From Mesorhizobium sp. (GTDB lineage Bacteria; Pseudomonadota; Alphaproteobacteria; Rhizobiales; Rhizobiaceae): a stretch of 64,000 nt of DNA. The stretch is taken from the NCBI GenBank assembly GCA_024710845.1, contig JANJTZ010000023.1, positions 12,248 to 76,247 on the forward strand, written 5' to 3'. Below the pieces are notes generated by a model. That model was not told the origin of the DNA and ran no database searches. It saw nothing but the letters and a program-made list of their open reading frames with translations. Shown here in pieces: positions 4,026 through 58,085 of this stretch. The position numbers were made by a program, and so were the translations under genes. The first letter of the stretch is position 1. Each line of letters starts with the position of its first letter.

Positions 4026-4658
4026 ATGGATCAGACGGTCACGATCAAGACACCTCCGACGGTGTTCGTCACCGACGGACCGGAGTTGACCTTTGATCTG
4101 CCGCTGATCCCGAAGCGAAGATTTAGCTTCTGGCTGGTGGCTTACTTCTCGATCGGCGTCATGGTCTGCTTTTGGGTTCTAGGCAATTACGCCAAATGGT
4201 TGGTGCCGCCAATGTTCGGCGCGGGCGATTTTCCTGCTGACACGTTCCTGCTCGGCTTGGTCTTCACGGGGATCGCTCTTCTGATTCTGGCTCCGGTTAT
4301 CGAGGGGCTACTCTTACTCGCCATTACAGCGTTATCGAACCGTCCGCTGCTGGAGATACGCGCGGAGGGCTTGGTTGATCGGCGGATATTCCGCCGCATG
4401 GTGCGGTGGGACGAGTTTGAGAGCGTCGGCGACCAGCGCCACATGGCCGGCCGCATAGGCATGAGAGGCATCCACTCGTTCAAGCTCAGGGACCGCAGCG
4501 TCCGGCGATTTTCGCCGGAATCGGCGTTCCATTCGTTCGTTCTTGGGGGCAGACGTGTCGTCATCCACACAAACGGTTTCGACATGCCGCCTCACCAGAT
4601 TCTGGATGTCATCCTCGCGATGATCCGCAACGCGCATGCGGAAAAGCGCGCCGCATAG
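4026..4658 (+). CDS. Hypothetical membrane protein (two predicted TM helices plus a soluble C-terminal domain)
   Basis: 210-aa ORF with hydrophobic stretches FWLVAYFSIGVMVCFWVLG and LLGLVFTGIALLILAPVIEGLLLLAI. GC is lower than neighbours (about 48-55% in two hand-counted lines). No family recognised. Confidence 0.5.
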   Translation: MDQTVTIKTPPTVFVTDGPELTFDLPLIPKRRFSFWLVAYFSIGVMVCFWVLGNYAKWLVPPMFGAGDFPADTFLLGLVFTGIALLILAPVIEGLLLLAITALSNRPLLEIRAEGLVDRRIFRRMVRWDEFESVGDQRHMAGRIGMRGIHSFKLRDRSVRRFSPESAFHSFVLGGRRVVIHTNGFDMPPHQILDVILAMIRNAHAEKRAA

Positions 4659-4699
4659 AGCGTTCACCCGGATGGCGGCGCATAGCAATGTCGCAATTT

Positions 4700-4740
4700 C
4701 CTATTGCCTTACTGCCCTATTCCCCTACTCCCTTATCCCA
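4700..4740. repeat. Purine-poor degenerate 7-8-nt repeat tract abutting the TRIC-channel start codon
   Basis: CCTATTG CCTTACTG CCCTATT CCCCTACT CCCTTAT CCC. It shares TATTCCC(C)TACTC with the heptamer array at 33842-33853. Confidence 0.5.
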
Positions 4741-5375
4741 TGAACCCCATCCTCGCCTTCGACTATGCCGGCATTGCGGTTTTCGCCGCCACCGGCGCGC
4801 TGGCGGCGTCGCGCAAGGAACTCGACATGATCGGGTTCCTGTTCCTCGCAAGCGTCACCGGCGTCGGCGGCGGCACGTTCCGCGACCTGATCCTGGGCCA
4901 GACGCCGGTGTTCTGGGTCAGGGAGCCAGGCTACATCCTCGTCTGCGCAGCGGTCGCGGTGCTTGTCTTCTTCACCGCCCATCTGTTCGAGAGCCGCTGG
5001 CGGCTGCTGCTCTGGCTCGACGCGGTCGGCCTCGCGGCCTATTGCGTGCTCGGCGCGCAAAAGGGACTGGACGCTACCGGCTCGCCGGCCATCGCCATCG
5101 TCACCGGCATTCTCACCGCAACCTTCGGCGGCATATTGCGCGACCTCCTGGCCGGAGAACCGTCGGTGCTGCTGCGGCCCGAGATCTACGTGACCGCGGC
5201 GCTGGTGGGCGCAGCGACGCATACCGGCCTTTTCCTGCTCGGTTTTCCGATCCTTGCCGCAGCCCTCGTCGCGGCGGCTGCCGCCTTCATCGTGCGCGGC
5301 GGAGCGCTCAAGTTCGGATGGACGTTTCCGCGCTACAAGGCCCGGCCCGGCCGGCGGCCGGAAGACATTCCCTGA
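4740..5375 (+). CDS. Trimeric intracellular cation channel (TRIC/UPF0126, YadS-like) membrane protein
   Basis: Starts MNPILAFDYAGIAVFAATGALAASRKELDMIGF...GVGGGTFRDL, with a second half ...TATFGGILRDLLAG. This is the duplicated UPF0126 glycine motif. Start is uncertain because no Shine-Dalgarno precedes it. Confidence 0.8.
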   Translation: MNPILAFDYAGIAVFAATGALAASRKELDMIGFLFLASVTGVGGGTFRDLILGQTPVFWVREPGYILVCAAVAVLVFFTAHLFESRWRLLLWLDAVGLAAYCVLGAQKGLDATGSPAIAIVTGILTATFGGILRDLLAGEPSVLLRPEIYVTAALVGAATHTGLFLLGFPILAAALVAAAAAFIVRGGALKFGWTFPRYKARPGRRPEDIP

Positions 5376-5481
5376 GTCCCGCCGCCGCCACAGGTTTTTC
5401 GCATTTCCGTCTCATTTCGGAAGCATCGTTCACGATGTCGCGTTAACGGAACACATATCGTTGACCGGCATTCTTGGTGAG

Positions 5482-6075
5482 ATGTCATGCCTGAGGGGGC
5501 GTGAGACCGGGACCGGAAGCGTGAGACCTAGCGTAGCTGCCTTTTTGTTTCTCGTGGCGACGCCGACCTTTGCGGCCGACGAGATTCCGGCGCCGATCGC
5601 CGAGCGCTTCGCGGGCGACCAGGACTTCGACTGGAGCGGCTTCAGGCTCGGCGTGCAGGGCGGCTATGCCTGGGGCCCCGGCGTGGTCGCCGGCGAAGGC
5701 GCGATCGGCGGCCTTCACGCCGGATACGACTGGACACTCGGAGACGCGGTTGCCGGCGTGGAAGGCTCGCTCTCTGCCGCCGATATCGAGATCGGCCCCA
5801 ACAACCGGCTGACATCCGTCATCGATCTGCGGGCTCGGATCGGCTATTCGTTCGACCGGGTATTGGTCTACGGCACCGCCGGCGGCGCCTATGGCAGCAC
5901 CAGCGCCGGTTTCGACGGGCGCGGCTCCGCGGTTGGCGCCGGCCTCGATTTCGCCACGCTGGAGAACGCGATCTTCGGGGTGAAATACCTGAAGTACACG
6001 TTCGAGAACATGAACAACACAGGCAACTCCCTCGAGATCGACCTGATCGAGGGCACGCTTACCTACAAGTTCTGA
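5482..6075 (+). CDS. Outer-membrane beta-barrel protein (OMP_b-brl/Omp25-31-like)
   Basis: Signal peptide VAAFLFLVATPTFA|ADE, then WSGFRLGVQGGYAWG, alternating beta-strand pattern and terminal ...GTLTYKF. A GTG at 5521 is an alternative start. Confidence 0.75.
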   Translation: MSCLRGRETGTGSVRPSVAAFLFLVATPTFAADEIPAPIAERFAGDQDFDWSGFRLGVQGGYAWGPGVVAGEGAIGGLHAGYDWTLGDAVAGVEGSLSAADIEIGPNNRLTSVIDLRARIGYSFDRVLVYGTAGGAYGSTSAGFDGRGSAVGAGLDFATLENAIFGVKYLKYTFENMNNTGNSLEIDLIEGTLTYKF

Positions 6076-7769: not shown

Positions 7770-8747
<978 letters not shown>

Positions 8748-8753
8748 GGCGAC

Positions 8754-11700
8754 CTACTTCGGGAGGCTCGCCTTGACCAGTTCGATCTTCTTGTCGACCA
8801 GGTCGATGAGCGGCGCGTAGCCGGCCTCTGAGAAGCCCTCCTTCGCCTGCTCGAACATGGACAGCGCCTGCCGGTAGTCGGCGGCGCCGCCGCCCTGGGC
8901 GGCGAGCGACCAGTGTACGTCGCCGATATTGTTCAGCGCGAAAGCCCATTGCAGCGGCTGCGCCTCGCGCGTGAAGACCTGCGTCGTCGCCTCGAAGGCA
9001 GCCTTCGCTTCGGGCAGGAAGGCCGGATTCTGCTCGCGGGTAGCGAGATTGAGCAGCGACATGCCGAGGCCGTTCTGCGCATTCGCCCAATCGACTGCCG
9101 CGTTCTGCGGGGTGAGCACGCCGAGCGCTGCCCTTCGGGCGGCGACCGACGCATGCAGGTTGTCGGTCTTCTCCTCGGTCGCGGCAAGGAATTGCAGCGC
9201 ATCGCCCATGCTGGACGTGGCAAGCGCCCACTGCATCGGCGCCCGCTCCCGCGTGTATTCGCGCAGCGCCAGATCGTAGGCCTCGATCGCCTCGCGGTAG
9301 TATTTCGCGTCTCCAGTCACCGCCGCCATCAGGCGCAGCGTGTTGCCTTCGTTGTTGTGCGTCATCGCCCAGTCGGAGGGAAAGTCCTTGCGCTTGTAGA
9401 TCTTGCGCGCGGCCCGGAACGCCTCGGTCGACTTTTCCAGCGCCGCGACGTCCTGCGTGCGCTGGCCGATGGTCTGCCAGGCCGACCCGAGATTGTTCTG
9501 CACGGATGCCCAGTCGAGCGGCGTCTTGCCGCGATCGAAGACCGTCAACGCACTTTCGTAAGCGTCGCGCGCGCTCTCGATGCTGGCCGTGCCGATCTCG
9601 TAGCGGCCAAGCATTGTGTAGCTGTTGCCGAGATTGAGCTGGCTGGCGGCCCATTGCAGCGGCCAGTTCTCCTTCGTGCGCACGGTCATCGCGGCCTTGA
9701 ACGCCTCGGCCGCCTGTTTGGCCGGCTCCGGATCGTTGCGCGCCAGCGACAGCGCGTTGAGCGTGTTGCCGAGATTGTTCTCGACCATCGCCCAGTCGAC
9801 CGGTGCCGCTTCGCGCGTGAACACTTCGAGCGCGGCGCGGTAGGACGCCTCGGCCTCGACAAGTCCCGACACGTCTCCGGTCGGCTGCGACAGTTGGAAC
9901 AGCGCGATTCCGATATTGTTGTGCGAGGACGCCCAGTCGAGCGGCACCTTTTCACGCGGACGTTTTGCCAGGGCGGCCCGGTAGGCGGCGACCGCGTCAC
10001 GGATCATCGCGGTATCGCCGGACCGCCCGCCCATGGCGAGTAGAATGTTGCCGATATTGTTCTGCGCGGCCGCCCAATTGGGATCGTCGCCGCCGGCGGC
10101 GAAGATCTCCATCGCCTCGCGGAACGTGTCGAGCGCCCGCGACAGGTTCTCGGTTCCCTCCTCGCGCTCGCCGATCGTGTTGAGCACCACCGCCATGTTG
10201 TTGCGGGTGATCGCCCAGTCACGGCCCTTCTCGCCGTTGGGCAGCATGTCGAGCACGGCCTGATAGGCGGCGAGCGCGCCGTCGAGCGAGGCGCGGTCGC
10301 CGGTGGCGGTGCCGAAACCGCGAAGCGCCTCGGCCTCAAGGTTCTTGTAGTTCCAGGCAAGACGCTCGTCCCATTTCTGGACGAGGTCGAACGCCTTGGC
10401 ATAGTCGCCGGCAGCGGCGCGGAAGTCGAAGGCGAGCGCGGCGGCGTCGGCGCGCTTCGCATAGATCGCCGCGTCGGCGATGCGCTTGTCCTTGACCTGT
10501 TCTTCAAGCGCGTCGACCGCGGCACTTCCGGCCTCGACCTTTGCCACCGCGTCGTCGAGGAATTGCCGCGCTGCGACGATCGCACCTTCGCCGATGGCTC
10601 GGTCGGCAGCACCTGCCAGCGCTAGCAGTTCCGGGTCGTCGGTGCGCAACGCCGCGCGCTCGTTCAGCATCGACTTCAGCCGGCCCGCCTGGGCGTCGAG
10701 CAATTTGCCGAGATCCTCGGGATTGGCGGGGGTCGCCTCCTCGCCCAACGCCCGCAGGATGCCGTAGAGCGAATCGAGCTTGACGCCTTCGCGCAGCGCC
10801 ACCTGCTCGACCTGGACGCGCTCGAAGTCGGGCAGGTCGGCCATGGTGAGCAGCAATTGCCGCCGCTCGCCGGTGATCGTCGCGTCGACGCCCTGCGGTT
10901 CCTCGGGCGCGATGCCGAAATAGAGGAGACGACGCAGGCTCTCGTTCATCCACGGCCGCTGGCGGGCCTTGGTGGCGAGATAGACCTCCTCGGTCACCAT
11001 GCGCATAACCTGGCCGAACTCGAGGCCTTTCATCGCGGCGAGGTGGCGGATCAACGCCGCGGCATAGGGGCTGTTGGCGCCCGATTCGCCGTCGAGCGCC
11101 GGCTGGCCGGGCTCGGCGGCAAAGCCGATCACCGTGCCGAGATTGTCGCTCGTCGGCGCCGGCGCCTTGAAGCCGGTGACGCCACGGACAACACCCAGTC
11201 CTCCGGCGGAGACGGGTTCGCTCGAACCGGTCGGCGTGCGCTTCAGCGTCGCGCCCGGCGGGAACGGGTTGGTGCGGCAAGCGTCGAGCAGGACAATCGT
11301 CACCGGTACCGTCTTCTTCAGCTCATCGAGGATCGAGGCGAGCGAGACGAAGGAGTCCTCGGCGGTCTCCAGGGACGCCGGGCCTGCGTCCACAGGGATC
11401 AGCCAGTTGTCGCCCGCCGCCTCGATGCCGTGGCCGGAATAATAGAGGAGCGCCACGTCCGCATCTTCGGCGTCTTCCGCGAAACGCTCGAGATCGCGGC
11501 GCAGCTTCGATGCGTCGCGGTCGGTCACGCCGCGGGCGTCGAAGCCGAGATCGGTGAGCAGCTTCACCATTTCGCGGGCGTCGTTGGCCGGGTTGGGCAG
11601 CGCCTGGATGTTCTCGTAGGCCGACTGGCCGATGACCAGCGCCACACCGTTGAGGCTCTTCGGCTCCTGCGCAGAGCACGGTTGTGCCGCGAACAGCATC

Positions 11701-11756
11701 GCGACCGCCCACATGGCGGCCACAAGCCTGCACAGGTACCGGTTGAGAAGCTGCAC
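8754..11756 (-). CDS. Secreted caspase-fold (peptidase C14) protein with a C-terminal 47-residue-repeat solenoid
   Basis: 1000 aa with GTG start and signal peptide ...AMLFAAQPCSA|QE. C14 dyad contexts are LLYYSGHG (H109) and IVLLDACR (C160). Ten (P)xDWAxxxNNxGN repeats are spaced exactly 47 aa apart (W514...W937). Confidence 0.85.
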   Translation of the reverse strand: MQLLNRYLCRLVAAMWAVAMLFAAQPCSAQEPKSLNGVALVIGQSAYENIQALPNPANDAREMVKLLTDLGFDARGVTDRDASKLRRDLERFAEDAEDADVALLYYSGHGIEAAGDNWLIPVDAGPASLETAEDSFVSLASILDELKKTVPVTIVLLDACRTNPFPPGATLKRTPTGSSEPVSAGGLGVVRGVTGFKAPAPTSDNLGTVIGFAAEPGQPALDGESGANSPYAAALIRHLAAMKGLEFGQVMRMVTEEVYLATKARQRPWMNESLRRLLYFGIAPEEPQGVDATITGERRQLLLTMADLPDFERVQVEQVALREGVKLDSLYGILRALGEEATPANPEDLGKLLDAQAGRLKSMLNERAALRTDDPELLALAGAADRAIGEGAIVAARQFLDDAVAKVEAGSAAVDALEEQVKDKRIADAAIYAKRADAAALAFDFRAAAGDYAKAFDLVQKWDERLAWNYKNLEAEALRGFGTATGDRASLDGALAAYQAVLDMLPNGEKGRDWAITRNNMAVVLNTIGEREEGTENLSRALDTFREAMEIFAAGGDDPNWAAAQNNIGNILLAMGGRSGDTAMIRDAVAAYRAALAKRPREKVPLDWASSHNNIGIALFQLSQPTGDVSGLVEAEASYRAALEVFTREAAPVDWAMVENNLGNTLNALSLARNDPEPAKQAAEAFKAAMTVRTKENWPLQWAASQLNLGNSYTMLGRYEIGTASIESARDAYESALTVFDRGKTPLDWASVQNNLGSAWQTIGQRTQDVAALEKSTEAFRAARKIYKRKDFPSDWAMTHNNEGNTLRLMAAVTGDAKYYREAIEAYDLALREYTRERAPMQWALATSSMGDALQFLAATEEKTDNLHASVAARRAALGVLTPQNAAVDWANAQNGLGMSLLNLATREQNPAFLPEAKAAFEATTQVFTREAQPLQWAFALNNIGDVHWSLAAQGGGAADYRQALSMFEQAKEGFSEAGYAPLIDLVDKKIELVKASLPK

Positions 11757-11844
11757 GCGTATCGATCCGGGCCGAATATGCCTTTGCCGTCCGGGATTTC
11801 GGACGAGTGCGCGCTAGCATAGAACGGTATCGGGACTGTGTCGC

Positions 11845-11866
11845 CGCCGCGGAGAGACGCGGCGGT
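11845..11866 (-). terminator. GC hairpin downstream of the cytochrome c gene; possible terminator or attenuator
   Basis: Perfect 8-bp stem CCGCCGCG/CGCGGCGG with a 6-nt loop, 22 nt after the stop. There is no U-tract on the minus strand, so function is uncertain. Confidence 0.3.
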
Positions 11867-12391: not shown

Positions 12392-13072
12392 CTACAGCGA
12401 AGTCCGAAGCACATATCCCGGCGGATGAACGAGACGGACGAGAGTGACCGGCGCCTCGCCGATGAAGGTCGCACGTTCTGCGACGAACACTGCCTCGCCC
12501 GGCGGCAGACCGAGGATCTCCGCCTCGCTGGCCGAGGCCCGCGCGGCGCGGAACGAGAAATCTGCCCGGGAGAACGGGGCGTTCTGCACCAGCCATTCGT
12601 TCGGGCTGATCCCGGCGAAGCTCTCGGCGAGCGCCGAAGGCACCGACACCGGATTGATCCAGCGGTCTTCGAACTGGTAGGGCGCGCCGTCGGCGAGATG
12701 CAGGCAGCGCAGGTGCAGCAGATCGCCTGAAAGGCCAAGGCGCGCACGAACCAGCTCAGGCGCCGGCTCGATGTCGCGCGACAGGAGCGCATAGCGGTAG
12801 GCAGCACCCTCGGCCTCGATCTCCTGGCGCACCAGCGGGATGACGAAGCGCGCCTCGCGCACCGGATGCAGCGCGATCCGCGTACCTGCCTTGCGCTTGC
12901 GCTCGACGACTCCGGCGCGGGCGAGTTCCTGCAGGGCGCGGTTAACGGTTGCGCGCGCCGAGCCAAATTCGCGGGCGAGATCCTCTTCGCCCGGGATCGT
13001 CGTGCCGGGGGCCCATTGGCGGGTCGCGATACGGCGTTCCATCTCCTGCTTGATCGCGCGAAAGGATGCCAT
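12392..13072 (-). CDS. hutC: Histidine utilization repressor, GntR/HutC subfamily
   Basis: 226 aa; GntR wHTH (PGEEDLAREFGSARATVNRALQELARAGVVERKRKAGT) plus a UTRA-like C-terminus. Its start shares one nt with the hutF stop. Confidence 0.85.
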   Translation of the reverse strand: MASFRAIKQEMERRIATRQWAPGTTIPGEEDLAREFGSARATVNRALQELARAGVVERKRKAGTRIALHPVREARFVIPLVRQEIEAEGAAYRYALLSRDIEPAPELVRARLGLSGDLLHLRCLHLADGAPYQFEDRWINPVSVPSALAESFAGISPNEWLVQNAPFSRADFSFRAARASASEAEILGLPPGEAVFVAERATFIGEAPVTLVRLVHPPGYVLRTSL

Positions 13073-14526
13073 CAGAAGCGCTCCAGAACCGATGTGAGGC
13101 AGGCTCGATAGCGCGCCGCGATCGCCTCGCGCGCGACGTGCCGGCCGGCTTTGACACGATGGCGACCGGCCGACCAGAGTTCGGAGACCGCCGCATTACC
13201 GGCTGAGAAGATCCACGCGTCGAGTGCGGCGGAGCCGCCAAGCGGCGCGAAGCCCGCGGCATCGAGGTCGAGAGAGACGAGGTCCGCCCACATTCCGGGC
13301 TCTATTGCGCCCGACGCGCGGCCAAGGGCCCTCGCGCCTCCGGCGAGCGCCCCTCGATAGAGAACATCTCCGGCGGACCGGCCCGGCGGCGCCAGCACCA
13401 CGCGCAGCCGGTCGCGCAGGCGTTGCGAATACTCGAGCTGGCGCAGTTCCTCGGTGGCGGCGATACGGACGTTGGAATCGGAGCCGACGCCGAACGAGCC
13501 ACGCGCGCCGAGAAAGCGCGCGCCGTCGAAGATGCCGTCGCCGAGATTGGCCTCCGTCACCGGGCACAGGCCCGCGACCGCGCCCGAGCGCGCCAGACCC
13601 TCGGTCTCGGCGGGATTCATGTGGGTGCAGTGGATCAAGCACCAGCGCGCCGATACGTCGTGCTCGGACAAAAGCCATTCGACCGGACGGGCGCCAAAGG
13701 CGGCGCGGGTCTCGTCCAGTTCCTTCTCCTGCTCGGCGATGTGCATGTGCAGCGGCCGCTCCGGCGCCAGCGGCGCGAGGTGCCTGAGGTCGTCGCGCGA
13801 CACCGCGCGCAGCGAATGCGGCGCGATGCCCCACGACGCATCGGCCGGCAGGTTGGCAATCACATCCGGCATCCGCGCGGCGAGTTTCTCGAATGACTCG
13901 AGGCTGTTGCGGAAGCGCATTTGTCCGCCAGCCAGAGGGCGCCCGTCGACGCCGCCCTGCGCATAGTGAACCGGCAGCAGCGTCAGGCCGATCCCAGTCG
14001 CCCGCGCCGCGGCCGCGATGCGCTCGGACAGCTCCGCGGGGTCGTCGTAGCGCGCGCCGCCCGGGCGGTTGTGCAGATAATGGAACTCGGCCACGGCCGA
14101 AAAGCCGGCCTCCTGCATCTCCATGAAGGCGAAGGCTGCGATCGCCTCGATCTCGTCGGGCGTCAGCACGTCGAGGAAGCGGTACATCACTTCACGCCAG
14201 GTCCAGAAGGAATCGTGTTGCGAGGGACCGCGCGCTTCCGTGAGACCCGCCATCGCGCGCTGGAACGTGTGGCTGTGCAGATTGGACAGCGCCGGGAGCA
14301 GGACTGGCACCTGGACAGCGCCGGGCACGAAAGCCGCGCCTGTAGCGACTGAGGCGATCCGCCCATCGGGACCAATCTCAACCCGGACATTCTTCGACCA
14401 GCCATCCGGCAGCAACGCATTCGAGGCGTGGATCGCAACCCCGTCTGCCGTCATCCTCGGGCTTGTCCCGAGGATCCGCGGCGGTGCGCCGTTGGCCATT
14501 TCTGCTGTCGCCTCACCCGCGTTCAT
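13072..14526 (-). CDS. hutF: Formimidoylglutamate deiminase
   Basis: C-terminal part of the 765-aa ORF. Amidohydrolase motif LSNLHSHTFQRAMAGLTE, within the hut locus. Start chosen at MNAGE (AAGAGG 7 nt upstream); ATG at 14454 is an alternative. Confidence 0.85.
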   Translation of the reverse strand: MNAGEATAEMANGAPPRILGTSPRMTADGVAIHASNALLPDGWSKNVRVEIGPDGRIASVATGAAFVPGAVQVPVLLPALSNLHSHTFQRAMAGLTEARGPSQHDSFWTWREVMYRFLDVLTPDEIEAIAAFAFMEMQEAGFSAVAEFHYLHNRPGGARYDDPAELSERIAAAARATGIGLTLLPVHYAQGGVDGRPLAGGQMRFRNSLESFEKLAARMPDVIANLPADASWGIAPHSLRAVSRDDLRHLAPLAPERPLHMHIAEQEKELDETRAAFGARPVEWLLSEHDVSARWCLIHCTHMNPAETEGLARSGAVAGLCPVTEANLGDGIFDGARFLGARGSFGVGSDSNVRIAATEELRQLEYSQRLRDRLRVVLAPPGRSAGDVLYRGALAGGARALGRASGAIEPGMWADLVSLDLDAAGFAPLGGSAALDAWIFSAGNAAVSELWSAGRHRVKAGRHVAREAIAARYRACLTSVLERF

Positions 14527-14547
14527 GACCTCGCCTCTTGACACATT

Positions 14548-14580
14548 ATGTCTATGCATAATAGCAATATGCGCAGACAT
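14548..14580. promoter_or_regulatory. 33-bp imperfect palindrome in the hutF/hutI divergent region; candidate HutC operator overlapping a TTGACA -35 box
   Basis: ATGTCTATGCATAAT-AGC-AATATGCGCAGACAT, arms complementary at 12/15 positions. AT-rich within a GC-rich genome. TTGACA lies at 14538-14543, with TAATAG/ATAGCA 15-17 nt downstream. Confidence 0.45.
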
Positions 14581-14595
14581 TAAAAGCGAAATCCG

Positions 14596-15786
14596 ATGGC
14601 TCGTCTCGTTCTCGACACTCTGCGCATCGCGACGATGGCTCCCGCCGCCGGCTGGGGCCTGGTCGACGGCGCCATCGGCATCGAGGACGGGCGCATCGCC
14701 TTCGTCGGCGCTGTCCCGGCAGACTGGCGCGGAGTCGAGCGCGAGGATTTCGGCGGGCGACTGGCAACGCCGGCGCTGATCGACTGCCACACCCATCTCG
14801 TCTTCGGCGGCAACCGCGCGAAGGAATTCGAGATGCGGCTGGAAGGCGCGACCTACGAGGAGATCGCGCGCGCCGGCGGCGGCATCGTCTCGACGGTGGC
14901 GCAGACGCGCGCGCTCACGGAAGACGAACTTGTCGCCCAGGCCCTGCCCCGGCTCGACGCCATGCTGGCGGAAGGCGTCGCAACAGTCGAAATCAAGTCG
15001 GGCTACGGGCTGACGATCGCGGACGAGCTGAAGATGCTCCGCGTCGCGCGCCGGCTGGGTGAGCTGCGGCCCGTGCGCGTCGTCACGTCCTGGCTCGCGG
15101 CCCATGCAGTGCCTGCCGAATACAAAGGCCGCGCGGAGGCTTATCTCGACGACGTCGTGCTGCCGGGGCTCGACGCGGCCCATGCCGAAGGACTGGTCGA
15201 CGCTGTCGACGGGTTCTGCGAGGGCATCGCGTTTTCGCCGGCACAGATGTCGCGCGTGTTCGACCACGCGCGCGCGCTCGGCCTGCCGGTGAAGCTCCAC
15301 GCCGAACAGCTCTCCAATCTCGGCGGCGCCAAGCTCGCGGCATCGTACGGCGCGCTGTCGGCCGACCATCTCGAATACCTCGACGCCGCGGGCGTTGCCG
15401 CTATGGCCGCCAGCGGCACCGTTGCCGTGCTGCTCCCCGGCGCCTACTATTTCCTGCGCGAGACGCAGGCGCCGCCGGTGGCGCTGCTGCGCGAGGCCCG
15501 CTTGCCGATTGCGGTCGCCACCGACTGCAATCCCGGTTCCTCGCCACTCGCCTCGCCGCTTCTAGCGATGAACATGGCCTGCACGCTGTTCCGCCTCACG
15601 CCGCAGGAGGCGCTGGCGGGCTTCACCCGTAATGCCGCGCGGGCGCTGGGGCTCCAAACCGAGATTGGCACGCTGGAGCAAGGCAAACGCGCCGAGATCG
15701 CCGTCTGGGACGTCGCCGACCCGGCCGAGCTCGCCTACCGCATCGGCTTCAACCCGCTGCACCGCCTGATCGGAGCCGCCGCATGA
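14596..15786 (+). CDS. hutI: Imidazolonepropionase
   Basis: 396 aa; [14 protein letters not shown]...GGGIVSTV...KLHAEQL...ADHLEY are HutI signatures. Confidence 0.95.
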
Positions 15787-55910: not shown

Positions 55911-58085
55911 CTATTTCGTGGCCGGGCTGGTCTCCATCGGAAAGACCAACACCGCGCCCTTCGAACCGCGCTTGTCCTGGAAACGCTTGACGTCGCGGGT
56001 CGCCGGCGCCTTGGCGATGTCGTCGAGCAGGCCGGCGAAGCCTTCCGGCGCCGCGGCGGAGCGCGTCGCCTGCCGCACGCCCTTCTGCGCCAGATAGCCG
56101 AGGTCGAGCGTCGATGACTGCTGCTCCGCCTCGGTCAGCACCGCAATCAGCCGCTCGTTGCCGAAGCTCCCCTCCGACACGGTGAACAGCCCGGTCTCCT
56201 CCAGTTCGTCGCGCTCGTGCAGGCGTATCGGCGCCTCCGCCGAACTGATCGTGTAGTCGCTGCCGACATAGAGCACGTTGAGGTCGACCGGCTTGCGGGA
56301 TTCGTTCTTCGCCGAAACGAAGATCGAATCGCCGGGATGTAGAACGGGCACGTTGCCCGCCTGGATAGGGGTCAGCTCTTCCTCGTCCGCCCGCTGCACC
56401 GAGAAGGTGACGCTCACGTCGCCGCGGCGGAAGTCGGACGCGCCGGCAAGCCGCGACAGGTTCATTGCCCGCGAAATCACCACGAGGTCGTCGGAGAGTT
56501 TGGCGCCGAGCTTCCCGGCATCCGCCGTGAACATCGACGGCGGACGGCGGCCCTTCTCCAGGCTGATCTCTCCCGAGGGCGGCAGCAGCCACAGGGCCGG
56601 CTCTTTCGGGGCGTCTGCCACAGCGCCGGGAACGTCGCTCTCGCGCATCACCGCGAAGCGGATGTCGGCCGAAGCACCAGGCTCGACCACGCGCAGCTTG
56701 AGCGGCGTCTTGCCGTCCGCCGCGATCGCCTCCAGCGCCGCATTGGCGCGCGCGACATCCTCGGCGAGGCCTTCCACGGGCGGTGCCTTGGCGACCACCA
56801 GTTCGAAATTGATCGCCATTTCGGCAATGCGGGCATAAGCGCCGTCCGGGATCTCTTCCATGCGCAGTGCCGATCGCCCGGCAAAGGCGGCCGGTAGCGC
56901 CTGGCTCGTCAGGCTGGTCGCCGAACGCACCTCGAGATAGCCGACCGCGTCCTCGATCGGGTCGAGCGGCGATTTGAGCACGGCAAGCTTGGTGCCCGGC
57001 TCGACGCGGTGCAGCATGCCGGCCGGCAGCGCCACGACCCCGTCCTTCACGGCCACCTTCCACTGCAGCACCGCATCGCCAGGCTCCATCCCGAACACCG
57101 GCGCGTCGAGGTCGCCCTCGAACAGCGGCGTCGGCTTGGTGCGGTTGAGGCCCGAATAGTGCTGCAGGATGCCCTGGCTGAGCTGGCGGTAGGTGACGTT
57201 CGGGTTTTCCGCCAGCTTCGACATCAGCGTGTAGGTAAAAAGGCCGAAGATCCTGCCGGCCGGGTCGGTCGCAGGTTGCGGGAACTCCGGCGTGGTCTCC
57301 ACCGTCTGGGCGGCGAAGAATGCGACCATGCCGCCGCGCTCCGCGGCGCCTGCGCCGTCATCATCCTCGGACAGGCCAAGCGCATTCTCGCGCTCCGCAT
57401 CGCCCCCAGTCCCGCGCGTGGCCTCTCCGCGGGCCGCCGCCATCATCTCCGGCGTGAAGCCGAGCGATTCAGGTGAGATCTTGCGCTCCTTCTCCTCGAC
57501 GCCCATCCCCACCGCGCGCGTCGCGGTGCCGGAATGGCAGGCGTCGAAGACGACCCAGACGAAAGCCCCCTTGTCGCGGATCGCATCGAGCGCCGCGCCG
57601 ATCTCGTCGTCCATGATGGCGTTGGGGACGGTCTTGGTCGCCGGGTCGATCTTGCTGATGTCGGCGGCGAGGAAAATCTCGTCCTTGCCGTCGATTTCGG
57701 TCGCCGGATCGGCCGCGGGCTGCTGCGAGCCGTGGCCGGAGAACTGGATGTAGACGAAATCGCCTTCTTCCGCCTTCGCCGTCAGGTCCGAAAGAGCCTC
57801 CAGGATGGAGCTGCGCGTCGGCGCCTCCGCGCCTTCGGTATTGCTCGCCAAAATGGTCACGTCGGAGGCGGCGAAGGGAGCGGTGGGATTGCTGACCAGA
57901 TAGTCCCGCACCAGGCCGGCGTCGTTCTTCGGCCCTTCCAGCCAGTCGCCCTTCGGCAAGTTGGGATATTCGGAAACACCGACGATCAGCGCCCGGTTGG
58001 TGCGCGCCTCAGCCTCCAGCGTCCCGCCGCACAATGCGGCGAGCGCCGCTGTCGCAAGCAGGCTGCCCGCGCGTCTGAGACCCAT
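55911..58085 (-). CDS. Secreted caspase-fold (peptidase C14) protein with a long uncharacterised C-terminal region
   Basis: 724 aa with signal peptide ...AALCGGTLEAEA. C14 dyad contexts are YIQFSGHG (H118) and VVFDACHSG (C183). The C-terminal stretch HPGDSIFVSAKNESRKPVDLNVLYVGSDYTI resembles the DUF4384 beta-sandwich, from memory rather than a search. Confidence 0.85.
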   Translation of the reverse strand: MGLRRAGSLLATAALAALCGGTLEAEARTNRALIVGVSEYPNLPKGDWLEGPKNDAGLVRDYLVSNPTAPFAASDVTILASNTEGAEAPTRSSILEALSDLTAKAEEGDFVYIQFSGHGSQQPAADPATEIDGKDEIFLAADISKIDPATKTVPNAIMDDEIGAALDAIRDKGAFVWVVFDACHSGTATRAVGMGVEEKERKISPESLGFTPEMMAAARGEATRGTGGDAERENALGLSEDDDGAGAAERGGMVAFFAAQTVETTPEFPQPATDPAGRIFGLFTYTLMSKLAENPNVTYRQLSQGILQHYSGLNRTKPTPLFEGDLDAPVFGMEPGDAVLQWKVAVKDGVVALPAGMLHRVEPGTKLAVLKSPLDPIEDAVGYLEVRSATSLTSQALPAAFAGRSALRMEEIPDGAYARIAEMAINFELVVAKAPPVEGLAEDVARANAALEAIAADGKTPLKLRVVEPGASADIRFAVMRESDVPGAVADAPKEPALWLLPPSGEISLEKGRRPPSMFTADAGKLGAKLSDDLVVISRAMNLSRLAGASDFRRGDVSVTFSVQRADEEELTPIQAGNVPVLHPGDSIFVSAKNESRKPVDLNVLYVGSDYTISSAEAPIRLHERDELEETGLFTVSEGSFGNERLIAVLTEAEQQSSTLDLGYLAQKGVRQATRSAAAPEGFAGLLDDIAKAPATRDVKRFQDKRGSKGAVLVFPMETSPATK

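Follow-up and report, generated by a model that had tools for sequence, protein, structure and literature searches.

A predicted exported caspase-family protein of Mesorhizobium with eleven 47-residue TPR-type repeats

According to a survey by Asplund-Samuelsson et al. (2012, PMC3501461), bacterial caspase homologues (orthocaspases or 'metacaspases') are abundant in rhizobia and frequently start with a transmembrane (TM) or signal segment, and tetratricopeptide repeats (TPRs) are among the domains most commonly fused to them. Here we analyze one such gene in a 64,000-nucleotide stretch of Mesorhizobium sp. DNA (contig JANJTZ010000023.1; hereafter the window), namely the open reading frame (ORF) at 8754-11756, which an earlier note made from the sequence alone had described as a 1000-residue secreted caspase with a long repeat array. 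The ORF list bears out this reading frame (minus strand, GTG start). Caspases that are fused to TPRs and also have an N-terminal signal or TM segment are already known from the 2012 survey, and the gene is an ordinary member of that group: like the surveyed homologues, it has a C14 p20-type domain, a His-Cys dyad, and a TPR fusion. Its 47-residue repeat period, its fixed 11-unit array, and its helical linker are, however, not described in that survey. In order, the protein consists of a predicted signal peptide, a C14 caspase domain, a helical linker, 11 TPR-like units of 47 residues, and a C-terminal capping helix. Full-length orthologues of ~1000 residues are present in Mesorhizobium and relatives, and the AlphaFold2 (AF2) model, built with a 102-sequence alignment, has a mean predicted local distance difference test score (pLDDT) of 88. 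Our confidence in the overall architecture, a C14 protease joined to a TPR array, is high. On balance, we think it probable that the protein is a Sec-exported, most likely periplasmic C14 cysteine endopeptidase of the paracaspase/orthocaspase-like kind, which would cut after Arg or Lys and bind a partner or substrate in the groove of its TPR array.

The array is strictly periodic. Tryptophans stand at residues 514, 561, 608, 655, 702, 749, 796, 843, 890, and 937, and the nine successive gaps between them are each exactly 47 residues, with no indel; our recount thus agreed with that of the earlier note (whose coordinates, 8808-10376, correspond to residues 461-983). Every array Trp lies within a (P)xDWAxxxNN(L/I)G context. 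The ten units aligned without gaps, with W8 and A9 invariant and G16 and A42 nearly invariant (consensus: RExxPxDWAxxxNNxGxxLxxLxxxxxDxAxLxxAxxAFRAALxVFT). In 2000 shuffles of the protein, with all periods of 20 to 79 considered, the longest chain of evenly spaced Trp residues had 4 members, compared with the 10 observed. A hidden Markov model (HMM) built from the ten units found all ten of these same units in exact register, at 62-73 bits each. A further Trp, W468, precedes W514 by 46 residues, that is, the Trp of unit 0 is one residue off register. The earlier note had proposed a degenerate unit here, and two lines of evidence back it: AF2 predicts a hairpin of the same shape at residues 460-506, and the unit HMM places an eleventh unit at residue 460 in orthologues that are 95-97% identical.

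Structure prediction returned the regular solenoid that the earlier note had anticipated. The array was modeled at pLDDT 95-98, within outer limits of 90-99, and DSSP assigned 11 A/B helix pairs to it. In each unit, the P-x-D-W-A cap opens a helix A of ~22 residues (unit positions 5-26), which is followed by a 2-residue G-D turn, a helix B of 14-17 residues, and an 8-residue linker, V-F-T-R-E-x-x-P, into the next unit. Foldseek matched the array to O-GlcNAc transferase (OGT), SPINDLY, LGN/Pins, and designed consensus-TPR (CTPR) superhelices of 8 and 16 repeats, and on these matches the predicted array is a TPR-type solenoid. The TPR-like, longer-than-34-residue helical repeat described from the letters is therefore upheld by the helix-turn-helix units of the model and by the OGT, LGN, and CTPR matches, with Pfam TPR_10 and TPR_12 contributing only sub-threshold matches. 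Relative to a 34-residue TPR, the 13 extra residues would correspond to a helix A lengthened by roughly two turns and to a longer linker from B to A. In 9 of the 11 units, helix A is better conserved among orthologues than helix B (~0.75 vs ~0.61). Helix-A positions 10-12, 17-18, and 20-21 are conserved within each unit (0.6-0.8) yet differ from unit to unit, and the most variable positions are the exposed helix-B positions 30, 31, 33, 34, and 37. Such a pattern would be predicted for A helices that form the lining of a specific binding groove, as they do in other TPR proteins.

We next turn to the class of repeat. The protein itself scored 25.3 against Pfam TPR_12 (cut-off 30.1) and 15.5 against TPR_10 (cut-off 27.5), both sub-threshold. 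Many orthologues, nevertheless, have precomputed PF13424/PF13374 matches, and paralogues and other repeat relatives lie clearly above the Pfam cut-offs (for example, 113 bits for TPR_10 at locus L019). By transitive homology, the array can be assigned to TPR_10/TPR_12 (kinesin-light-chain-like) as a diverged member; it looked unfamiliar because its own units have diverged below the cut-offs. We then searched the ten-unit profile against 1.84 billion representative proteins, which supplied the taxonomic spread that the earlier note had left to a profile search. Matches were found in 24,720 protein clusters at E <= 1e-3 and in 3,649 at E <= 1e-30. These proteins are 579-3530 residues long with 6-47 matched stretches each, and many of them outscore P0022, the representative of the query's own orthologue cluster, which ranks eighth. 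The genome matches span Alpha-, Beta-, and Gammaproteobacteria, Cyanobacteria, Chloroflexota, and Chlorobiaceae. The period was checked in the best 149 of the 24,720 clusters, and the figures on true 46/47-residue arrays apply to these strong matches rather than to the weak tail; in these 149, 1049 of 1207 consecutive unit spacings (87%) were exactly 47 and 5.6% were 46. Strict phase is hence the norm for this repeat type and does not single out the query. The units of the relatives share the consensus TRERVPLDWAxTQNNLGxALxxLGERExGTxRLEEAVxAYRAALEE. Among the 52 relatives scanned with Pfam, 48 passed the TPR_10 cut-off and 44 that of TPR_12 (best E 8e-44); LssY_C was attached to the repeat in 10, and CHAT, Peptidase_C14, and TIR_2 in 4 each, while many had no other recognizable domain.

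The period of the query, exactly 47, matches neither the canonical 34 residues nor the 42 of TPR_10. On these comparisons, we regard the 47-residue repeat as a long-period subtype of TPR_10/TPR_12 that is common in bacteria, and not as a new fold. The novelty implied by the earlier note was overstated in this respect. Of the outcome that it had named as telling against its claim, an ordinary 34+13 TPR variant with variable spacing, the '34+13' variant was found and the variable spacing was not. Searching PDB sequences with the unit profile gave only partial-unit matches, to 34-residue TPRs, with no chain covering a full 47-residue unit; for P0122, a consensus-like member of the family, no match in the same database was below E 0.04. 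With NCBIfam, all matches of the query and of the consensus-like repeat proteins tested were below the cut-offs. We found no description of a 47-residue TPR in the literature searched, and, as far as that literature shows, the 46/47-residue subtype as such is undescribed.

We also noted a sister repeat with a strict period of 46 rather than 47 residues at six cyanobacterial loci (L025-L028, L030, and L036). Two cyanobacterial relatives were scanned against Pfam, L024 and L025, and both have a C-terminal CHAT domain. In L025, which has the 46-residue period, the repeat is N-terminal to CHAT, the reverse of the domain order in the query gene; L024, with a repeat spacing of mostly 47, has the same layout as L025.

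An exact 47-residue phase could also result from recent tandem duplication or gene conversion instead of structural selection. Duplication is active in the wider repeat family, where the number of units ranges from 6 to 47 and unit identity in the top profile matches has a median of 59% and reaches 92% (a set biased towards consensus-like arrays). For the query gene, the evidence refutes this origin, to which we give next to no credence. Its units are 19-32% identical to unit 1 and have a mean pairwise identity of 30%, compared with 59% identity of the array as a whole to orthologues. Each unit has a one-to-one counterpart in orthologues (58-95% identity), with unit number unchanged. Tandem Repeats Finder (TRF) reported no 141-nt repeat in the DNA of the gene, and recent duplication of 141-nt units was rejected on this ground. 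The 470-residue array is free of indels in 99 of 120 orthologues, and its Trp columns are nearly invariant among them. Collectively, these data argue that the array is old and fixed and that its phase is kept by structural constraint, the explanation that the earlier note had preferred for this gene. The orthologues listed are all 932-1036 residues long, which indicates that the repeat number is fixed at 11 within the orthologous group; the comparison of repeat number among orthologues that the earlier note had advised showed no change in unit number.

Paralogues differ in this respect. Two pairs of caspase-TPR paralogues from related genomes, the members of each pair sharing one metagenome-assembled genome (MAG), are 64% and 46% (L010/L013) or 67% and 43% (L005/L015) identical to the query. 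The paralogues, L015 and L019 included, have 7, 10, or 17 units, all at 47-residue spacing; the repeat number therefore varies between paralogues, not between orthologues.

The protease domain matched PF00656 Peptidase_C14 with an E-value of 5e-37 (128.2 bits, cut-off 21.4) over profile positions 2-233 of 233, and its caspase-hemoglobinase fold is supported by an AF2 pLDDT of 84-92 over residues 40-180; a loop at 191-203 was modeled with low confidence. The C14 domain that the earlier note had recognized, with its His/Cys dyad, is therefore real, and H109 and C160 lie in YYSGHG and LLDACR as it had stated. Chains of the MALT1 paracaspase were the best PDB match by sequence (E 3e-10) and also by fold (Foldseek probability 1.00, TM-score of 0.79 normalized to the caspase-domain chain 3v4o_A). 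The MALT1 alignment is gap-free between residues 30 and 128, and H109, C160, D59, and D158 therefore fall on H415, C464, D365, and D462 of MALT1. D365 and D462 are two of the three acidic residues that form the Arg-binding S1 pocket of MALT1. With their counterparts D59 and D158 in place and the dyad invariant, an active protease directed at basic residues (Arg/Lys) is the likeliest reading, and our confidence in this specificity is moderate.

The domain might instead be a pseudo-protease, that is, a non-catalytic scaffold in which only the TPR array matters. Precedents exist: about 25% of alphaproteobacterial caspase homologues lack the dyad (PMC3501461), and pseudo-orthocaspases are described as common in some bacterial groups (PMC6426788). 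In the alignment of 102 full-length orthologues, however, H109, C160, D59, D158, G108, and R161 are all invariant, and no other part of the protein is as well conserved as the caspase domain (mean column conservation 0.81), which makes a scaffold of this kind very unlikely here.

Beyond the protease domain, residues 280-459 form the all-helical linker, which includes one ~49-residue helix (393-441) in the AF2 model. A Pfam scan of the linker gave no match. Its mean column conservation among orthologues is 0.75 and it is almost free of indels, suggesting that the linker is probably functional as well.

At the N-terminus, residues 1-29 (MQLLNRYLCRLVAAMWAVAMLFAAQPCSA) show, by inspection, a basic n-region, a 14-residue hydrophobic core, and C-S-A before Q30; a twin-arginine motif and a lipobox were not seen by the same means. 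Conservation is lowest in this segment, which is 24% identical to orthologues and has indels in 119 of 120. Its layout recurs in orthologues all the same, most of which have a small-x-small motif (S-x-A or A-x-A) right before Q or E. A layout kept while the sequence drifts is how signal peptides evolve, and the signal-peptide features that had been read from the query alone are kept in its relatives. Cysteines occur only at positions 9, 27, and 160, leaving the catalytic C160 as the sole Cys of the mature protein, and 70 of 120 orthologues have a single Cys beyond residue 35. A mature protein with one Cys fits a thiol enzyme in an oxidizing compartment. The protein is most likely exported by Sec to the periplasm, a prediction in which we have moderate to good confidence.

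Alternatively, the hydrophobic segment could be an uncleaved signal anchor that tethers the protein to the inner membrane, with the protease and the TPR array facing the periplasm. For bacterial metacaspases, N-terminal TM helices and signal peptides are indistinguishable by prediction (Asplund-Samuelsson et al., 2012, PMC3501461). Two features of the segment are, on the other hand, typical of cleaved Sec signals, namely the short core of only ~14 residues and the small-x-small motif directly before Q or E in most orthologues, and we consider an anchor unlikely, if still worth bearing in mind.

How might a protease and a TPR array work together outside the cytoplasm? In the model that we favor, the protein would be exported by Sec and its signal peptide cleaved near Q30. 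In the periplasm it would fold into a C14 protease and a rigid superhelix, made of 11 TPR units plus the capping helix, with the helical linker as the tether between the two. The A-helix groove would then bind a protein partner or substrate, and this binding might either bring substrates to the active site or free the protease from an inhibited state. Cleavage would follow after Arg or Lys, via H109/C160 and an acidic S1 pocket. Our analysis directly supports the architecture, the predicted fold, the assignment of the catalytic residues, the constancy of the repeat number, and the pattern of conservation; we infer export, cleavage specificity, and ligand binding, and our confidence in a role of the TPR groove in binding a partner or substrate is moderate. 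Four observations weigh against this model. First, the third MALT1 S1 residue, E500, lies outside the alignment and no counterpart could be placed. Second, the AF2 predicted template modeling score (pTM) is only 0.63, and the placement of the protease relative to the array is not fixed by the model. Third, relatives of the repeat mostly carry CHAT, TIR, or no recognizable domain and are apparently cytoplasmic, so a periplasmic role is not transferable from them. Lastly, there is no conserved neighbor that could name a substrate.

The repeat relatives also raise the possibility of a cytoplasmic conflict or defense sensor-protease, in which the TPR array senses an invader protein and switches on the caspase, similar to TPR-CHAT (Craspase) or gasdermin-activating proteases. 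Other bacteria have CHAT, TIR_2, and other C14 domains attached to the same 46/47-residue repeat; for the query, NCBIfam gave a weak match (57 bits, cut-off 140) to 'caspase, EACC1-associated type' and PADLOC a generic match. This match was to the plain 'caspase' model (43 bits), accompanied by a weak 'TPR' match, and PADLOC identified no system-specific component. Signal-peptide features are, moreover, conserved, and the neighbors are housekeeping genes: cysK converges with the gene on one side, a cytochrome c gene in the same orientation precedes it on the other, hutC-type and hutF-like genes are located beyond, and pfkB and hrcA-grpE are nearby. No partner gene is conserved in orthologues. 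The gene is found in many named Mesorhizobium species at a fixed length, a distribution that is core-like rather than island-like. Given these points, and with no specific PADLOC system matched, a defense sensor is quite improbable, and assignment to an anti-phage defense system was rejected on the generic matches and the lack of a conserved neighbor.

At 95-97% identity, MAGs of Mesorhizobium sp. are the nearest genomes. Only relatives of at least 95% identity keep synteny with cytochrome c, cysK, hutC, hutF, and pfkB; clustering of flanking ORFs from 17 loci gave no shared neighbor, and orthologues at 60-69% identity have no flanking gene in common. Conserved operon partners were thus rejected as well. 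The absence of shared neighbors, together with the merely generic PADLOC match, indicates a stand-alone chromosomal gene, widely conserved in Mesorhizobium, and not a component of a defense island or an operon. The predicted parts of the gene are listed in Table 1.

Table 1. Positions in the window of the caspase-TPR gene and of its predicted parts.
Feature	Position	Strand	Basis
Whole caspase-TPR gene (GTG start, 1000 codons + stop)	8754..11756	-	ORF list
Predicted Sec signal peptide, residues 1-29 (followed by QE)	11670..11756	-	Inspection of sequence; AF2 pLDDT <60
Peptidase_C14 (caspase/paracaspase-like) domain, residues 37-279	10920..11648	-	Pfam PF00656
Catalytic His109 codon (YYSGHG)	11430..11432	-	Alignment to MALT1 H415; invariant in 102 orthologues
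Catalytic Cys160 codon (LLDACR)	11277..11279	-	Alignment to MALT1 C464; invariant in 102 orthologues
All-helical linker, residues 280-459	10380..10919	-	AF2 secondary structure, pLDDT 67-88
Unit 0 (degenerate eleventh repeat), residues 460-506	10239..10379	-	AF2 helices 464-485 and 488-503
Units 1-10, residues 507-976, contiguous 47-residue repeats (141 nt each)	8829..10238	-	Trp count, unit HMM, AF2 pLDDT 90-99
C-terminal capping helix, residues 977-1000	8757..8828	-	AF2 helix 981-997 after last hairpin

Around the gene we made several further observations. On its downstream side, the gene (stop codon at 8754-8756) converges with cysK (plus strand, ending at 8747). Only 6 bp lie between the two stop codons, and this junction showed no terminator-like hairpin. 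On the other side, between the cytochrome c and caspase genes, there is a minus-strand hairpin at 11844-11865 with a perfect 8-bp stem (CCGCCGCG-tctctc-CGCGGCGG). The cytochrome c stop codon precedes it by 23 nt, and the caspase GTG follows ~90 nt downstream. A T-run is absent, and the hairpin may act as a terminator of the T-less type or in regulation. A sigma-70-like promoter for the caspase gene was not found. Farther away, three consecutive plus-strand ORFs downstream of grpE (4026-4658, 4688-5446, and 5254-6075; 210-273 residues) had no Pfam match at E <= 1e-3; the last two overlap, and at least one of them may not be a real gene. A 765-residue ORF on the minus strand (13072-15369) matched HutF_N and Amidohydro_1 only within residues 312-736, its first ~310 residues being unmatched, and relatives aligned to it in two pieces (L002). 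An over-called start or a fusion of two genes may account for this.

The earlier note had also reported a second exported caspase-fold protein in the window, and a second caspase-family protein is indeed encoded at 55911-58085 on the minus strand. It has 724 residues, a Peptidase_C14 match (E 4.9e-13), and FSGHG and FDACH dyad motifs; its N-terminus, MGLRRAGSLLATAALAALCGG, is signal-like and its ~430 C-terminal residues have no Pfam match. The motif scan and Pfam found this protein, but phmmer and the orthologue HMM of the 1000-residue protein did not; the two caspases are therefore only distantly related.

For the gene itself, the main gain from this analysis is a cleaner annotation: a C14 protease, predicted to be exported, that has a TPR scaffold of 11 units and is conserved throughout Mesorhizobium. 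RefSeq already contains orthologues at 60-67% identity, as Mesorhizobium 'caspase family protein'. In the literature searched we found no experimental study of any member of the orthologous group, nor of an exported caspase-TPR protein. To our knowledge, caspase-family proteases outside the cytoplasm of Gram-negative bacteria have barely been studied, and a conserved rhizobial example, together with a second, distant caspase in the same 64-kb window, offers a manageable system in which to find out what these enzymes cleave. A single crystal or cryo-EM structure of the 46/47-residue TPR would be of use for a large family. More speculatively, the 46/47-residue long-helix-A TPR could be a discrete, experimentally unsolved class in tens of thousands of bacterial proteins that provides caspase-fold and TIR effectors with a dedicated sensor; in this Mesorhizobium lineage it would have been moved to the periplasm, giving a ligand-gated extracytoplasmic caspase that acts on envelope or on host- or symbiosis-derived proteins. 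We offer this broader proposal as a long shot.

Among known systems, MALT1 (PDB 3v4o, 3uo8, and others) is the best match in both sequence and fold to residues 30-280, but it differs in being cytoplasmic and eukaryotic and in having death and Ig domains with neither a TPR array nor a signal peptide; identity is ~21-23%. For the array, the nearest relatives are the TPR_10/TPR_12 repeat of kinesin light chain (KLC; 42 residues) and the 40-residue TPR of LGN/GPSM2, which share with it the NNLG/NNLA motif of helix A, the A-x-x-A-L motif of helix B, and a solenoid form. LGN was a Foldseek match to the array at a TM-score of 0.65 (normalized to the target). The period is what sets the query apart, with 47 residues and a helix A of ~22 residues compared with periods of 42, 40, or 34 in KLC-type, LGN-type, and canonical TPRs. 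In the KLC alignment, the query spans 5 more residues per unit (for example, 517-579 vs KLC 129-186), and the alignment with LGN needs a 7-residue gap per unit. TPR-CHAT proteins of cyanobacteria and of type III-E CRISPR systems (Csx29) also fuse a TPR array to a caspase-fold protease, and the cyanobacterial examples use the sister 46-residue repeat. They differ, however, in placing the TPR first and CHAT last, in having CHAT instead of C14 as the protease, and in having no signal peptide; Pfam found no CHAT domain in the query, and there are no CRISPR/gRAMP genes near the gene. In function, the closest parallel may be NlpI-Prc, in which a periplasmic TPR adaptor delivers substrates to a protease. 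NlpI and Prc are two separate proteins, and Prc is a serine protease. With no sequence relationship between them, the Mesorhizobium protein could be viewed by analogy as a fused version of this adaptor-protease pair.

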